Below are positions 4,458 to 58,110 of a DNA stretch of 64,000 nucleotides, one piece after another. The notes beneath the pieces were generated by a model that did not search any database, was not told the DNA's origin, and saw only the letters and a list, made by a program, of their open reading frames with translations. The stretch spans positions 372,001 to 436,000 of the forward strand of contig CDROCS010000376.1 in NCBI GenBank assembly GCA_977020255.1. The letters are read 5' to 3'. This DNA comes from Obrimoposthia wandeli. Lineage: Eukaryota. Each line of letters starts with the position of its first letter. Within the stretch, counting starts at the first letter, position 1. The translations under genes were made by a program, and so were the position numbers.

Positions 4458-5030
4458 ATGAACTTCAAAAATAATTCAATTTTTCAAATTGTAGGCCCTA
4501 GTGGTAGTAGGAAAACTCATTTCATTTGTAAATTACTTCAAAATAATAAATAGTTTAAATTCAAGTTTAATAAAATATATTGACATCAGGAAGCGCGTTT
4601 AACCACTAAGGAGTTTAAGAAAATCGAAAATATAAAAAGTCATTAATGGATTTGATGATAATTGGTCTGAACAAATAGGACGTCAGGATGTAATTTTTTT
4701 ATGACTTGTATCAAGAAGCCAATAAAGAGAGTGATTTCAATCATGTATTCAATAAAATAGCAAGACACCAAGAAGTAATTGTTATTTTCATCACACAAAA
4801 TATATTTCATCAGGGTGGTAATCATAGAACTCATAATTTAAATGTACATTACCTTGTTCTTTTCAAGAATCCACGTTATCAAACTGTTGTTGATTTCATT
4901 TCAAGATAAGCTAACCTGAATAAAAATTTAAAAAATCTACATTTTATCTAAGATTGCCCTTAATCACTTAAGAGTTAGAACTGATATATCCAATCCAGTT
5001 GTCATTTTTATTTATAACAATTCTAAGAAA
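4458..5030 (+). pseudogene. Polinton packaging ATPase remnant
   Basis: MNFKNNSIFQIVGPSGSRKTHF (Walker A), then LYQEANKESDFNHVFNKIARHQEVIVIFITQNIFHQGG..NVHYLVLFKNPR, colinear with 37724-38370. Confidence 0.9.
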
Positions 5031-23501: not shown

Positions 23502-23595
23502 AGTAGGTGGATGTGTCCGGTCTAATCCACACCCCCTCCCCCTACTGTCCTTTAAAACCGTGCATGTGTGTGGAGTGAAATTTCGTGTAGGTGTG
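23502..23595 (+). repeat. Left terminal inverted repeat
   Basis: agtaggtggatgtgtccggtctaatccacaccccctccccc..gtcctttaaaaccgtgcatgtgtgtggagtgaaatttcgtgtaggtgtg. Its reverse complement is found at 40731-40807 and 54755-54848. Confidence 0.95.
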
Positions 23596-24620: not shown

Positions 24621-26732
24621 ATGTCAAATTTCAATAACGTCGATTTGGATGAAGAGACGGAGGTTCAGCTGTATGGGGATCTCTCTCCAGTACAGCAGCA
24701 AACGCCACCACCGGCGCAGTACATTGACTTACTTAGTCAAGACTCGTCGGTGGTGAGTGAAGGAGACGAAGGAGAAGCAGCAGCAAAAGCCCAACTGTTG
24801 CTAGAAGAAGAACCGCCATTGGCCAGCTCAACTCCAAGAGAACAACCAATGAGCGTGCGAGGTGGGGTACAGAGATCCCAATATATCGATCTGACTAGTC
24901 AGGATTCGATAGAGAATTGGGAAGACTGTACTCCCAGGCTGAACATAGAAGCCAATCGTCCGGCAACTTCAGCAGTAGCAGCAAGGAGATCCAATCTCTT
25001 CGACAATTTTGAGGCGGCAATCAAATGCCCCTGGAAATTGATCCCGCTGTCTCAACCGGAGATAATACTGGCACCAGACTCAGACGAGGAGTTGTTTACT
25101 GATGACGTTCCGTCGGATGGGGAGGAGGAGTGGATACAGCTAAGTATCGGAGCCCCGGGAGCCAACGAGTCCATGGTTGCAGAAATGGATGAAGAAGAGT
25201 GGGATCTGTTCACTGACGAATGGGATGGTCTCACTCCCTCTACAACTCCGACTCCGATACCCAACAATACAGTGCCTGATCCATTCAGAAGGCCACAATC
25301 TCCGATACGTCCTGTTAGGAGAATAAAGGCAACGAATGAGGTTAGAAATCATTTATTTAAAATGTTTTTTAATTTTATTTTCAGAAACTGCAACTTGATT
25401 TGGCACCGTCAGTGACCACGATTGAGAGGCTAATTGAACGTCAATACTTGGCGAGTCAATGTAGCCAGGATGATCCCAGGAGTGATCAGAGATACCTACC
25501 GACTCCGGCTAAAATTGAGGTATATTATTATAAATTAGTAAATTTATTTAATTATTCACTTAGGAAGCTGAGTTGGTGGAGGAAATTTGGGAGGAAGCAT
25601 CTCGGAGACTACCTGTCGATAGGAAGCAAGCGGCAGTTAAGAAACCTCGACGTCATCGAATCAAAACTAATACGGTCCATCGGAAGAAGGCCAAGTTGGT
25701 GAAACAGGCTAATCTGCCCGTCATCGAGGTAAATTATTTATATGTTTAAATTTTATGAATTTTTTTGTTGTTGCAGGGACCAATAATATTAACTGAGGAG
25801 ACATGGGCCAAAATTTCTCCTTTCCCGCAAAAGCGAACGAGGCAGTGTGCTGTACGGAAGACACGGCGTCTTAGAAAGGCAAAATCCTGTCTGCTCAATT
25901 CGAGTGAAGTAACGATTGAGCGGCAGGAAAATCTTCCGTATAAGATTATTGAGGTAATTTTTTGTTATTTTAAATATTTTTCTAATTAAATAAAATTTAT
26001 TTGAAAATTTATTTTTGTTTTCATTTGCAGGAACCTGTCCGGATAATTGAGGAGACTTGGGGAGAAGTTACTCCTTTCCCTAAGAAAAGGACAAAGCGGG
26101 CAGAGGTGAAGAAGACGAGGCGCGCGAGAAAAATTCGGACCTCAATTGGCCATTATTCTGAGGCGGTGATTGGCCAGCAGGAGATTCTCCCTCCTCCAAT
26201 GGACGACGGGCCTATCCTATATGAGAGGATCCCAGTCTCACCAATCGAGATAAGTCCGCACTCGAGTCAACAACGCCTGCAGGAGACTGCTTTTCCTCGT
26301 CCAACAACCAGCCAAAACTTGAAGAGGGCCTGGGATGACGCTGGTTTGGACGAATTCTTGGCGGAACTGGATACACCGGCAATGCTTCCAGATTCGCGTG
26401 GGCAACAGGATGCCGTCTCACGCCAGCTTCAGCGTGAGAAGGAGGAGAAACAGAAGAAAGCTCCGCGGAAGAGGAAGGCTACTGCTTCTATGTCGGGGCC
26501 ATCAACATCGGCTGCACCTCCTCCCAAAAAGTTGCGGCAACTATTGCCAAAACCCGAGGGAAGGACAATTGCTGTACAGCAACCGGTGAAGCCGAAAAAG
26601 AAACCGGGCCGACCAAAGAAGAAGGAACCAGTACCACTTTCTCCTATCAAAATAAGTCGGAGGGAATACGACCCGGATGATCCCAATGATGACTTCGTAA
26701 AAATGTTCAAAAATATAATTTATAAACATTAG
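24621..26732 (+). CDS. Polinton accessory gene A: ~632-aa, 5-exon low-complexity nuclear protein (SIM-like motifs, three exon-encoded repeats, NLS, AT-hook)
   Basis: Exons 24621-25340, 25385-25519, 25564-25728, 25777-25953 and 26031-26732, separated by AT-rich GT-AG phase-0 introns of 44, 44, 48 and 77 nt. Splicing joins three ORF-track fragments plus a frame-shifted exon (25564-25728) into one open frame. The 3' end could have one more intron near 26698. Confidence 0.8.
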
Positions 26733-27421: not shown

Positions 27422-27562
27422 ATTATTATTTTGTCTTTATTGATTATGTTATAAAATTGTCTAAATATTAAATTGTCTAAATACTACCTCGTCATTTTAA
27501 TAAATTTTTGATTAATAGTTTTTCGTTATAAACAACGGGATTTGCTACAAATTTGGGTAATT

Positions 27563-28051
27563 ATGCAGGAATATATCATAGATTTTGAGGCTTTCATTAA
27601 CAAAAATGGGGATTATATTATAAAAGAATTATGTATTATGGATGTATGCGACGTTTTTCATCCTTTGCATTTCATATTTCATATAGATATCCCATTTAAA
27701 AGTTTAGATTATAAGAAAAAATTTACTAATTTATATCTAACTAAATATTTCCATTTATTAAAATGGAAAGAAGGACATAAGGCTTTTTGTGAAATATGTA
27801 TTTTCGATACTATTAAATCTAATTTTGAAATTGAAAATGGAATTTTTTATGTTTTAGATGACATGGATGGCAAAAAATATAAGACTTTAAGAAAATATTT
27901 TCCTAAATTGAGGTTGAATACTTTAAATATTTCACGTGATCATCTATTAAAAATTCCACAAAATATTTCCTGTCCATATCGTAATCATGGTGACCATTGC
28001 GCATATAAAAAATGTTTAAGTCTTTCTTATTATTACTTGACATGTAGATAA
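27563..28051 (+). CDS. Polinton accessory gene C: DEDD/DnaQ-exonuclease-like protein with a C-terminal Cys/His cluster
   Basis: MQEYIIDFEAF..YIIKEL..HFIFH..LYLTKYFHLLKWKEG..CPYRNHGDHCAYKKC matches the D.E/Q.F..IKEL..H.L.W..G..C..H..CA pattern of a recurrent Maverick accessory family. Confidence 0.7.
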   Translation: MQEYIIDFEAFINKNGDYIIKELCIMDVCDVFHPLHFIFHIDIPFKSLDYKKKFTNLYLTKYFHLLKWKEGHKAFCEICIFDTIKSNFEIENGIFYVLDDMDGKKYKTLRKYFPKLRLNTLNISRDHLLKIPQNISCPYRNHGDHCAYKKCLSLSYYYLTCR

Positions 28052-28446: not shown

Positions 28447-31400
28447 ATGCCTATGGTAAGAATTTATTTTTCTTATTTCCTTATTAATATTTATTATTTC
28501 AGATTACGTGTAACCTATTCCCTGCGTATTGCGCTGCTTCGGCTCCGCATGGAGGAGAGTCCTGCATGGAGACAATGTCTGCATACTACCGGACAAAGTC
28601 TCAAGGTGTTCTGTTCTTCGTCTGCCCTTTCTGCAGAACAATGGAGGAGAAGGAGTTTCGAGAATTCTTCTGTGAACATCGAGCTCACCTATCGTGTTTC
28701 ACGGCCAACAACAAGAAGAGGGATATCGTCCAATTGGTGCGCGATTCGCAGGCCGCTCCAGCTCCACCTCCAATTCCAGTGGCAGTCAGTCTACCAGTTT
28801 ATGGTCCTGTCATTGGTCCTTCTCTCCCGGCTCCTGATTCTGCTGCTGCCCCATCCACTCAAATGTCTAACAATGAGTGGATGAACGACATCTCCGAGGA
28901 AGATTTTGAGGAGTTGGCACCAGCAACCCAATTCTCAAACAATGACTGGATGCGAAATATCACCCAGTCAGAATTCGAGATGGAGCAGCCTCAGTGGAGC
29001 GATAACTCATGGTTGGAGACCATCGATGAATCCAATTTCGTCGAGTCAACGGACGACAGCTGGATGGATTCCATCAATGAAGAGGACTTCATTCCAGCTC
29101 AACTTGGATTGTCATCATTAGGTATTTTTTTATTTTTTTTTGTAAATAGTAATTATATAATTTATTTTTTAATATATATATCTTATTTTTATTTTTTTAT
29201 TCAGGAAATACCGTTCTACAATCGTCATCTGCTACAACAGATATGCCTCCAATGTCGCGAGTGCCTACATTGATGTTAGGACGCCTTAGAGGTAATAATT
29301 TTTAAAAATATATTTATTTTTTAATATATTTATTTCAGCAGCACTAACCTCTAAAACAGCCGCTTCTTCATCGGCAAGGTCAGCGGTCCCTTCAACATCA
29401 GCTACAGTTGCCTCAACATCGGCAGCATCACCAATAGCAGCACCTTCAACCTCAGCTGAGTTTGTGTCAACTGCTAATATAAATAGTTGTCTTCCCGTTA
29501 AATTAGGGGGAGGTTTGTCAGCGACAAACGGAAGAAAGAGGCGAGGCCAATTTCTTAATAAGGTCCCACCCAAAAAACGTAGAGAAAACGGTGCTACTAT
29601 AGAGTATCACCTAAATAATAAATATGTTATAGTTAAGGTGCCATTAGGAAATGAAATTTTATTAAACGTAGGTGTAGATTCAAATATTGAAAATCTTTTA
29701 AAATCAGAAGTGACTAAATTAGGACAGGCTAAGGTTCAATTTTGCGCAACAGTGCAGTTTAAAAATGTCAATGAGGAAACTAAAACTTGGGTAATTTCAC
29801 ATAAAGCAACTGTTTTTTATGATAATTTTGTAACTGAAATTGGAAGAAACCTGGATGAAAAAATTGCTAATTATAGCGAGTTAAGTAGTGGATGGACTCT
29901 AGTTAGAATTCACGATGTTAGCTTTGTTCTAACAAAGTTCACTGACATGATATATCTTTCGGGGAGTTCATACATTCCTTCACCTAGATCTCTTCAACTT
30001 TCACGTTCCATTGTTAACGTACAAAACAGTGATAACCTTTGCTTTCTGTATAGCGTGTTGGCCATCCTCAAAAGGGATGTAATTACTGAGCATAGAGAGC
30101 GTGTCAGTAAATATACCCCTTTTTTAAATGAATTGCAGTATCATGGAATAGATTTTCCTGTTAAATTAACTGCGATATCAAGATTTGAACATCTTAATAA
30201 CTTGAGTATTAATGTATTCAAATATAATACTGATATCTCAGTTAATGTAACAGATGAAGAAAATTTTAAAAATCCTTTAGTAGATGTAATTTATAGGAGT
30301 AAAAATGAGGGGACTCAGGTCAACTTAATTTTTCTCGAACATAATAAAAAATTCCATTATGCTGCAATTCCCAATTTAGATCGTCTTCTAAATTTAGATA
30401 ATGGAGCCTTACCGGTTAGGATAAGGTGTAAGTGGTGTCATAGATGTTTGCATGGGTTCCGATCCGAGCTCTCTTACAGCAAACATCTGACATTATGTTC
30501 ACTGAATCCTGATGACAATACGCTATATAGCATGCCTAAGGATAAGGATTTAAAATTCAGGGATTGGGCAAAATGCATACCCGTGGAATTCAGGGTGTAT
30601 GCAGATTTTGAGTCAATTTTAGCATTGCACGACCAGTATGAGAGTATTCACCTACCGGCTTCGGCAGGACTACTATTCTTAGGCCCCAATATTACCCAGT
30701 ATCATAAATTTTCCGGTCCAAATTGTATTTTAGATTTTATGTTAAAATTAGAGGAATTAGGAACAACAATTGTCAAACCGTGGTATGATCTCAATGCTCA
30801 TCAAGCAATGATCATGACAGGCATAGACTGGGTTAATTTTAATTCTTGTAGATTATGTAATTTGTGTGGAACCCAGTCTAAGTTAGTCAGAGATTACGAT
30901 CATGTTATGGGGCGATACTTGGGAGCGGCGTGCAACCTTTGTAACCTTGGCCGTTGTCTCCCTAAAAAACCACGCATTCCCATCGTGTTTCATAACCTCA
31001 AAGGATATGATTTGCATCATATACTTAAATACGCGTTGGGTACATTAAGCTCTTGGGAAATTTCATGTATGCCTCAAACTTCAGAGAAATATTTATCTTT
31101 AACTGCATATACTGAATTCTGCAGTTTAAGATTCATAGATTCTCTGCAGTTTTTGAGCGGGTCTTTAAAAAATTTAACGGCATCTTTAAATGCATGGCCA
31201 ATTACACAGTCAGTGTTCCCAACTTCGGTTAACGATAAGGGGATTTTTCCGTATCAATTTGCGAAAATTTTCGCAGATTTAGAAAATACAACTGAAATCC
31301 CACCCATAACTGAATTTGAGGGTGTAAGTCTTCAAGACTATAATGAGGCCCGTACATTTTGGGTGAATAATTGTCGAAATCGTTTAGAATATATGCTTTA

Positions 31401-32888
31401 TTATATGAAGTTAGACATTTATCTTTTAGCTTATGTTTTTGAGTCCTTTCGTGTAAAGTCTTTAGCAGAAGATGGGCTAGATCCCATGCATTTCTTTAGT
31501 TTACCTGGTCTTTCATGGGCAACAGCAATAAAAACTCTTAAAATTAATATTGAGTTACTGCAAGATCCCGCGATGTATCAAATGTATGATTATGGTATAC
31601 GCGGTGGAATGACTTTTGTCAACAATCATCATGTTGTCAAAAGTCAATCCACGGAGATTCTGAACATCGACATTAATAATTTGTATGGGTGGGCGCTTAC
31701 TCAACTTCTTCCTCATGCCAACTTTAAGTGGGTTTATGATGAGGAAGAGTTGAATAAGTTGATGACAGATTTGGCTACTGTTGATACAGTTTCATCAGAT
31801 ATCGGCTATTTGGTTGAGGTTGACTTAACAATCCTTCCAATGTGCATGATAAATTAGATGATCTTCCAGTAGCGCCTGTTCATCAATACCCACCTAATTC
31901 AAAGGTTAAGAAATTATTGTTAACCCATGAAGACAAGTTGAATTATGTTGTGCATTGGCGGCTTCTTCAATTCTACTTAAAGTTGGGAGCGAAAGTTACT
32001 CGAATTCATCGTGCTAAAAGCTTCAGTCAAAACTTTGTGTTTAAAGACTATATTGAGAAGAATTCAAGAAAACGTAATTTGGCCACTAGCAAATTCGATC
32101 GAGATTTTTATAAGTTAAAAAGTAATAGTCTCTTTGGAAAAACTGTAGAGGACTTGCGGAAACGTATTTGTCTACGGTTTTGCAATGATGAGCGTAAACT
32201 AAAAACATATACTAGCAAGTACAACTTTAAGCGTAGTTTTACAATTGCAGATGACTTGGTAGCAGTGTTATTAGGAAAACAGAGTATTTGTCTCGATCGA
32301 CCGAGTTATATAGGTCAAACGGTTTTAGACATTTCTAAACTCAGAATGTATGAGCTTCAATACATAGAATTGGAGAAATACCGACAAGAATTTAATTGTG
32401 AGATTAAAATCGCAGCTGGGGACACTGACTCTTTCTTTTTAGAATGTAGGAATGTTAGTTTAAATAATCAATTATTACCAGCAATGTTTAGGGACAAATT
32501 ACTAGATACCCATAAATATCCCGCTAACCATCCTCTACACTCTATGAGTTTAAAGGACATTATCGGGAAATTTAAGGATGAAAGCGAGGGACAGGTTTCG
32601 TATGATGATTGTATTTTCCTACGCCCTAAATGCTACAGTTTACATGCATCTAATAATACATGGTCAATGAGAGCAAAGGGTGTGGGAAGAAACAATCTTA
32701 CACATGAGGCCTACCGGAAAGTTTATGATACTGGGTGTATTGAAAGCGTTGAGCAAACTAGATTTATTTCAAGAGCCCATCAACTGTATTCCCATAAATC
32801 AACCAAAATCGCTTTGAGTAGTAATGACGACAAGCGCTTTTGGGTAGAAAAGAACGCTAGCCTGGCTTATGGACACTTCAGAATTTAA
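28447..32888 (+). CDS. polB: Protein-primed DNA polymerase B with spliced N-terminal extension; one -1 frameshift near 31836
   Basis: Exonuclease motifs YADFES, FHNLKGYD, YMKLDIY. Polymerase motifs DINNLYG, KLKSNSLFGK, AGDTDS, LRPKCY, KG. Predicted exons 28447-28455, 28503-29121, 29205-29291, 29339-32888. The join of ORFs 29464-31857 and 31842-32888 is repaired by one extra C in atcc[c]ttcc (LTIPSNVHDKLDDLP). Confidence 0.95.
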
Positions 32889-54690: not shown

Positions 54691-54848
54691 GGGGGGTACC
54701 CCCCCCCCTTGTCCTTTAAAACCGTGCATGTGTGTGGAGTGAAATTTCACTCCACACACCTACACGAAATTTTACTCCACACACATGCACGGTTTTAAAG
54801 GACAAGGGGGGAGGGGGGTGTGGATTAGACCGGACACATCCACCTACT
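54691..54848 (-). repeat. Third copy of the Polinton TIR with an internal fold-back duplication
   Basis: 54755-54848 is the reverse complement of the left TIR including its terminus. 54703-54747 and 54767-54811 are 45-bp inverted arms with one mismatch. Confidence 0.92.
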
Positions 54849-56149: not shown

Positions 56150-58110
56150 TTACAGGTCAGACATATATTTTTGATGAAAAAATAACTAAACATAAGACAA
56201 AAATGAATTTCAATTAAATCAACACAAATACTGAGTATGAAAAAAACTATATTAGCTTCATTCAAATTCCAAAGAAGTTGTATTTTTTTAAAATCAGAAG
56301 TAACATTAAACCGTATTAAAATATTCTACAGTTCTCCTTATAAATTTATACCAATATCATTTATAAAAAAAAAACTAGAATCCATTTCAAACTTAAAAGA
56401 ATTTTCTTCATATACATAATCAGGTGTGAATAATTCTAAAATATTTTTGAGCCGATCAATATCAGATTTTGTTAAATTTTCATTGAATATTCATGTTCGA
56501 CTTTTGATTTTTATACAAAATTCATAACACGTATAATTTTATGTGATTTTAATATTTTCCAAAAGTTTCTGGGTAATAAAAATTTAATATATTTCAGAAG
56601 AGAATCTACATTAAAAAACTGATAAAATAGAAATCTTTATAAATGAATATTATTAAGCAAAATACAAATGTAAATATTATGAAATGTAAAGAAATAAAAC
56701 CTGCTTACAATTTAAAGTCAATATATGCAGAAATATACAATTAAAAGAAACAGTAAAATTAAATATAAAGTAACACAGAAGGAAAGAAAAGAAAGAAATA
56801 GTCAAAACATAAGCAAGTTCAATTTCATCCATCCTGTAACCAAAAAGTTGAATTTGCACAGTCCATTGCTTCTATATATAATATAAAAATAAAATTGATA
56901 TACACGCTTTCTTATATCAACTGTCATCAGATTTACCAAAGCAGTTAATTGAGCCTTCTTCAAGAACCTGACTTTGTATTGAAAATATTGTTTCATTTCT
57001 GAATACGTATTCTTATCCGAATCTTCAAACATTTCTAAATCTTCATCATCGCTCAGTATTGGCTATCTTCCATCATTGATAAATATATTTGGTATGAATG
57101 CAATTATACTGATTCGTTCTCCAATGACATCTTCTTTAAAACTAATTTGTAACAAATACACAAAACTATTTGATTAATATAACTAAATTATTGAGTTTGA
57201 TTGGACCAAAACGATTTGTATTTGACCATCCCATTATAAAAGGTTTGCAACATATTTACAAGAAATTAGCAATATAATGAGAAATTCATACTTATTTATT
57301 ACAGAAACAGTTTTATTCTGATAAAACTCATGAATATAAATCATGAAGAAATAATAGAAGAAAATATTTTATATTTCAGAAGATTATTTGTGAAACAGGT
57401 TGATGATTATACAGTTTCTTTTAACACATAGTGCCGCAATAGTTGGAGCAGTAGCAGTATGTGTTGGTTTGCATACATCCTATTCATCAGTGAACAACCG
57501 CCACTCGTCTTCATATAACTCGGTACAGACTGAGTCACTTCTGGCGGGTGGTTCTCAGCTTGTAGGTAGAGCAGGAGTAGATGGGAAGAAGTCAAATCAT
57601 CATCCTCTTGAGGGTCTTCATTTGTTGACGGCACAAACTTGATAGAATCGTCAGGTTGGTCAGCTTTGTGGTTGCTGCAGTTGAGACAGTGGAAGCATAT
57701 TCCATTGGCATTGACATTTTATCGAGGCCTCGTATAATTCTCTTCCTCGCTGGCAGTGCTGATGTTGATGCTCACTAATTCTGTTGAACTTGAAGGGTGG
57801 GAAACTTGAGAATAGTTCTGTTGGGAAGTACATCCTTCCCAATTTGTTATCGACTCCTGACTAATAAAGTCTCTGTACCCCTTCTTTTTCTGTTGCTGGT
57901 GATGATCGTGTTGCTGATGCTCCTGCTGCTGCTGCTGCTGCTACTTGAACCTCTACTGGTTTTGACATGACGATAGGTTCACAAAGTTTCATTGAGTTTT
58001 GAATAAGTAATTCGATGTACTGTGACGATGTTCAAGTCGGTTGCTACACAGTAGCATCTGATAAGACCGAATGAAAAGAAAATTAATAATTATTCTTCGT
58101 CCAATATAAA
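56150..58110 (-). mobile_element. Inverted, internally deleted Polinton remnant 4 (gene A 5' part joined to the TBP 5' end, promoter and D1/D2)
   Basis: 56237-57080 (-) is homologous to D2/D1 (MFEDSDKNTYSEMKQYFQYKVRFLKKAQL). 57090-57365 matches the divergent promoter and TBP start (ataaaactcatgaatataaat vs atgaaactcgtaaatataaat). 57560-58050 (-) encodes SQYIELLIQNS, ISQESITNWEGCT and EASIKC..LPLSQ, homologous to gene A. Confidence 0.85.

Follow-up and report, generated by a model that had tools for sequence, protein, structure and literature searches.

A conserved two-zinc module is predicted to precede the terminal protein in the probably spliced polymerase gene of an Obrimoposthia wandeli Polinton

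A predicted two-zinc leader on a protein-primed polymerase

The analysis of a 64,000-nucleotide stretch of the Obrimoposthia wandeli genome (contig CDROCS010000376.1, positions 372,001 to 436,000; hereafter the window, in whose own numbering all positions are given) points to a Polinton/Maverick element whose gene for the DNA polymerase B that uses protein priming (pPolB) likely encodes a single polyprotein across four spliced exons. In this predicted product, a two-zinc module that probably binds nucleic acid stands ahead of a terminal protein (TP), a viral OTU-like protease (vOTU) and the polymerase. Taken as a whole, we regard this reading as the best explanation, with a probability of about 0.6, and its parts differ in strength. 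The fusion of the module to pPolB is well supported, and the order of module, linker, TP, vOTU, exonuclease and polymerase is held with high confidence. The presence of two sequential zinc sites is probable, and the binding of nucleic acid, a function judged from likeness, is favored more cautiously. The module appears to be a conserved, previously undescribed CCHC plus C2H2 unit carried by a clade of Polinton polymerases.

Predicted splicing and fusion of the module to pPolB

A preliminary description of this DNA, made from the letters alone, had joined a three-codon exon, a Cys/His-rich exon and an 87-nt exon to the pPolB frame through three introns without a frame break. This holds, with phases 0, 1 and 1, zero stop codons, and a pPolB frame common to positions 29341 and 29464 (Table 1). 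The predicted introns have GT..CAG boundaries and 6-15% GC, against approximately 46-49% GC in the exons. The open frame by itself is weak evidence for the exon structure, because 6 of 24 nearby GT/AG combinations also remain in frame. The same structure, which the description had proposed to seek in other copies of the element, was recovered in 29 close copies, nearly all of which retain the splice sites: donor GT in 29/29 at all three introns and acceptor AG in 28/29, 29/29 and 29/29 at introns 1, 2 and 3, respectively. Among these copies, the phase of exon 2 is kept in 27 and the length of exon 3 in 28, and the linker of exon 4 has a 54-nt in-frame length variant in 14. Four more divergent copies (L043, L051, L050 and L049) are about 84-90% identical. 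In two of them, L043 and L051, every length change in exons 2 and 3 is divisible by three (-102; -96 and -12 nt) and the intron lengths vary freely (51, 66; 44, 48 nt). L050 has a 1-nt shift in exon 2 and L049 is decayed, and the full comparison counts both as decayed. In copy L031 (G000:C563, 2921-4786), introns 2 and 3 are themselves in frame and free of stops, so that 622 aa can be read from genomic DNA without a break between the zinc module and the vOTU region.

Nor does the case for fusion rest on the introns of the window family. A second Polinton family of the same genome, about 42% identical to the window family over TP-vOTU, carries module and pPolB in one open frame of 814 aa. This family shares the TATA-like motif; its first exon consists of a lone ATG codon, a phase-0 intron (42-43 nt) follows just ahead of the first Cys, and there is no later intron. 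Three of its eight copies read for 744-814 aa from the module onward, and the frame of L034 extends to PF03175. Across the 150 best TP-vOTU homologs, the module is N-terminal in the same open reading frame (ORF) as pPolB in 11, including six of the top ten, although 71 of the 114 homolog rows that were classed are too short ahead of the match for its presence to be called. One of these proteins, P0009, is a 1369-aa pPolB with tandem module copies, and profile searches added four further module-bearing proteins. A quick tree taking in 59 of 115 rows has a branch with support 92 that separates the 11 rows with the module, interspersed with relatives without it, from the rows with C2H2 arrays. 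The claim that the Cys/His domain forms the N terminus of pPolB is strengthened by homologs in which the same module is fused without any intron.

These comparisons leave little room for the zinc exon of the window family being a separate short gene, or one spliced to pPolB only sometimes, which we consider very improbable. The exon joins are known from genomic sequence, the second family lacks introns 2 and 3, and the variation among close copies lacks frame-specific selection, all of which would suit such a gene. However, the long pPolB frame has its first Met at 29947, a position downstream of the TP region, so that an upstream start is required; furthermore, phases are kept in divergent copies and homologs are fused without introns.

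Two probable sequential zinc sites

The ten Cys/His residues reported earlier were all found at their positions, and eight of them group into putative zinc sites, site 1 (C6/C13/H19/C24) and site 2 (C44/C47/H62/H65). Conservation was assessed in 19 homologous rows from outside the window family, representing approximately 11 independent lineages. C44, C47, H62, Y31 and F58 are invariant in all 19 and H65 is present in 18, and the conserved positions also include P45 (17 rows) and K74. Site 2 has the spacing C-x2-C-x11-16-H-x2-H, and the site 1 spacing C-x4-6-C-x4-5-H-x2-5-C is shared by nine domain copies from eight proteins in addition to the window and the second family. In P0010, P0027 and P0031, site 1 is gone as a block and site 2 is kept (with one His uncertain in P0031), which suggests two sequential sites and no cross-brace.

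On this basis, site 1 resembles a CCHC knuckle and site 2 a non-canonical C2H2 finger. The broad features of C2H2-type fingers are present, namely a CxxC hairpin, two His on the following helix and a hydrophobic core residue (F58), but the H-x2-H spacing departs from the H-x3-5-H of the classical PF00096 family, for which the best module member reaches E 0.06. No Pfam family matched the module at its cut-off. In the AlphaFold model (pLDDT 74, low over the N-terminal 20 residues), a helix leads into three strands and a further two helices, with strands and then a helix at model residues 52-63. A fold search of the N terminus had been proposed as a check on a RING fold; its top-ranked matches, all weak, were the non-canonical C2H2 fingers of SERRATE/ARS2 (3ax1, 6f7s; PMC3177193), which share with the module a predicted helix, three strands, helix and helix together with a CxxC and two His.

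Relation to RING domains

The preliminary description had read the last six Cys/His of the exon as RING-H2 ligands 1-6 and had suggested that a ubiquitin-ligase-like domain stands in place of the OTU deubiquitinase. A canonical RING-H2 of this kind, with C44, C47, C60, H62, H65 and C68 as ligands and an E3 replacing the OTU, was considered and is largely refuted by conservation; we give it only a marginal chance. Ligands 3 and 6 fail, as C60 is Cys in 0/19 distant rows and C68 likewise (His in six), and C60 is replaced by Gly in the divergent window-family copies L043 and L051, so that the RING-H2 reading is unsupported. Both residues are kept in 29/30 close copies, which is uninformative because copies 93-98% identical keep any residue. 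The six-ligand pattern is rare in shuffled sequences (2/100,000), but this test takes no account of the four genuine ligands among the six positions. As the description had noted, the distal CxxC is missing, exon 2 having none beyond C68. Compared with RING-H2 E3s (PF13639), the module does share a CPxC after a Cys-led helix, and ligands 1-6 have counterparts in the window sequence alone; in contrast, its ligands 3 and 6 are not conserved, it has no distal CxxC, and its N-terminal four ligands are lost as a block.

True RING-H2 ORFs do occur in this genome: two or three of them lie 2.5-4 kb upstream of the divergent pPolB gene copy L051 (G000:C2616, 1991-3551), the first matching PF13639 at E 3e-9, and they may belong to the element. 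A true RING from this locus scored 37.5 bits as a control, against 11-13 bits for the module with Pfam RING models whose cut-offs are 21 and 27.3; a RING match of any kind, even below threshold, was obtained for one of 14 module members, the window sequence.

A more distant relationship was also weighed, in which the module descends from a rearranged RING, with H19/C24, the helix and CPxC as ligands 5-8, C6/C13 as ligands 1-2, and H62/H65 replacing 3-4. The earlier suggestion of an atypical or permuted RING survives in this other register, at a profile probability of 1%, and fails in the C44-C68 register. Within the RING-like CPFCR, P45 is widely kept, which counts for a RING origin, and the Arg that follows CPxC lacks conservation, which counts against it. 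In hhalign, C13-C47 aligns with the second half of the L051 RING-H2s (probability 1%, E 0.05), and a weak RNF213 RING match in the same register (E 0.49) disappeared with a larger profile. RING-like Atlas neighbors score 0.80-0.84, below 0.9, and related elements may have true RING genes nearby, as at L051. However, every one of these scores is at noise level, the ligand order lacks a C-x-H pair, three homologs have lost all of site 1 together, and most structure neighbors of homolog P0006 (TM 0.37-0.45, below the bar) are proteins of the C2H2 type. We therefore regard a RING descent as unlikely. Were it true, such a fold could still engage an E2 and bring a ligase together with the vOTU deubiquitinase, so that one polyprotein would combine a ubiquitin writer or reader with an eraser, an improbable arrangement in which the writer or reader would stay covalently bound to the two genome ends once the vOTU had cut.

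Retention of terminal protein and vOTU

TP and vOTU in the window pPolB are assigned from motif and domain order, which fit the scheme of Krupovic et al.; the TP-vOTU region gave zero Pfam or PDB sequence matches. The putative vOTU motifs D-x-x-C-F (Cys 30040) and H-Y (His 30355) are present in the window protein and invariant in an alignment of 14 rows, as is Ser 29887 beside Gly/Asn-Trp. By analogy with the scheme of Krupovic et al., the candidate for the linking residue is this Ser, which falls at about aa 422 in the predicted product. Because the vOTU and the TP region are both retained, the proposed replacement of the OTU is not borne out, and the finding is no evidence of a ligase-for-deubiquitinase swap. 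The accompanying proposal that the Cys/His domain travels with the terminal protein is upheld, as the module forms the predicted pPolB N terminus and the TP region follows it.

Proposed role of the module

Nucleic-acid binding by the module is backed by analogy, because 12/150 homologs hold classical C2H2 motifs in the leader slot and none a RING pattern. Judged from sequence, these more distant pPolBs occupy the slot upstream of TP-vOTU with predicted classical C2H2 arrays (P0069, P0117 and P0010), which exceed the PF00096 cut-off, whereas the module has no Pfam family; P0010 carries both site 2 of the module and a classical array. In the mechanism that we propose, the polyprotein would run from zinc module through flexible linker, TP, vOTU and exonuclease to polymerase. 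The module, on its flexible linker of approximately 250 residues, would grip the DNA of the terminal repeat, or else chromatin or some host factor, and its binding would position the terminal protein on the element end for protein priming. Cleavage by the vOTU between TP and itself, as proposed by Krupovic et al. (10.1101/2024.03.18.585575), would leave module, linker and TP covalently on each 5' end. If the module stays on the genome ends, it would be a candidate for origin recognition or for a hold on host chromatin, a role that its size of 80 residues makes testable.

The module could instead be a protein-interaction finger that does not bind nucleic acid and that, together with the acidic repeats, draws in host factors of replication, ubiquitin or chromatin, or else the integrase or the capsid; we hold this to be possible but less likely. 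After the module, the leader holds an acidic repeat, W-[ML]-x-x-I-x-[EQ]-x-x-F, four times (at 28869, 28938, 29001 and 29052, spanning 28869-29090), and P0003 has similar repeats in frame ahead of its TP-vOTU; such acidic aromatic repeats may resemble host-factor-binding or activation motifs. In addition, the conserved positions are mostly aromatic or hydrophobic (Y31, F/W55, F58, L66, F69) with K74 alone basic, and the module is duplicated in tandem in P0009 and P0010. However, these aromatic and hydrophobic residues may be mere core, the classical C2H2 arrays in the same slot favor nucleic-acid binding, and a candidate partner was not identified.

Comparison with described Polinton polymerases

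In the accessible parts of the published accounts, the TP-vOTU-EXO-PALM pPolB of Polinton/Maverick (alpha adintovirus) elements (10.1101/2024.03.18.585575; PMC8502044) has in common with the window element the terminal inverted repeats (TIRs), rve integrase, A32-like ATPase and PF03175, as well as the candidate linking Ser beside Gly and the vOTU Cys and His. These published models begin pPolB at the terminal protein, whereas in the window a leader of approximately 320 aa, holding a further conserved module without a Pfam family and the acidic repeats, precedes it. The three predicted spliceosomal introns also set the window gene apart; intact vertebrate Mavericks are described as intronless in the text available from PMC8097293. 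Because introns hide the true start, the module is overlooked when the long ORF alone is annotated. The literature as accessible to us yielded no account of a Polinton pPolB with a zinc module, although supplements, Repbase and subscription journals may hold one. The available portions of 10.1101/2024.03.18.585575, PMC12721341 and 10.64898/2026.10.13.758929 do not mention zinc, and the first does not mention RING either. The pPolB additions described in the accessible text of PMC8502044, 10.1101/2023.08.22.554363, PMC12721341, PMC3671162 and others are HNH, VSR and helicase domains. A literature search for adenovirus polymerase zinc fingers returned nothing.

The element and neighboring features

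The element has the TIRs, pPolB, rve integrase and packaging ATPase expected of a Polinton/Maverick, with PF03175 pPolB on the plus strand and the rve integrase with chromodomain and the A32-like ATPase on the minus strand. Its left TIR opens with AGTAG at 23502, and its right TIR is slightly truncated. The family is young, abundant and of very high copy number: the Cys/His exon was found at 99-100% identity in 150/150 scored candidates, out of 21,471 candidates in this 1.35-Gb genome.

Table 1. Features of the Polinton and its pPolB gene in the window
Feature	Position	Strand	Remarks
Polinton/Maverick element	23502..~40806	.	17.3 kb, TIR-bounded
TATA-like motif TATATAAGCAA	28398..28410	+	~47 nt before ATG; common to second family; putative promoter
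Exon 1	28447..28455	+	9 nt, three codons; final ATG precedes phase-0 GTAAG donor
Intron 1 (predicted)	28456..28502	+	47 nt, phase 0
Predicted two-zinc module	28503..28739	+	5' part of exon 2 (exon 2 in full 28503-29121, 619 nt)
Rest of exon 2	28740..29121	+	Pro/Ala-rich linker, four acidic repeats
Intron 2 (predicted)	29122..29204	+	83 nt, phase 1; missing from second family
Exon 3	29205..29291	+	87-nt linker exon with phase 1 at both ends (symmetric)
Intron 3 (predicted)	29292..29338	+	47 nt, phase 1; missing from second family
Exon 4 start	29339..29583	+	Ser/Ala/Thr low-complexity linker; putative basic nuclear-localization-like stretches
Terminal-protein-like region	29584..29910	+	Candidate linking Ser at 29887
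vOTU-like protease region	29950..30380	+	Candidate catalytic Cys 30040, His 30355
pPolB exonuclease and polymerase part	30381..32888	+	PF03175, E 3e-15 and 2e-7; two frames due to frameshift

The window copy of pPolB is frameshifted near 31.83-31.86 kb, and copies L034, L041, L032 and L036, drawn from both families, have a frame change near the exonuclease-palm junction at about the same place. Immediately upstream of pPolB, an ORF at 27512-28051 is conserved in both families at approximately 44% identity; a Pfam scan of it gave no match, and its start resembles what we take to be a DEDD-type nuclease motif. A further multi-exon gene lies inside the element at 24621-26732, with short AT-rich introns and a TATATAAG motif upstream, and the two of its ORFs that were scanned had no Pfam match. 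More divergent Polinton fragments occur elsewhere in the window at 4467-4896, 54699-54848 and 56240-57369, comprising an ATPase piece, a terminal repeat with a hairpin and a subterminal region.
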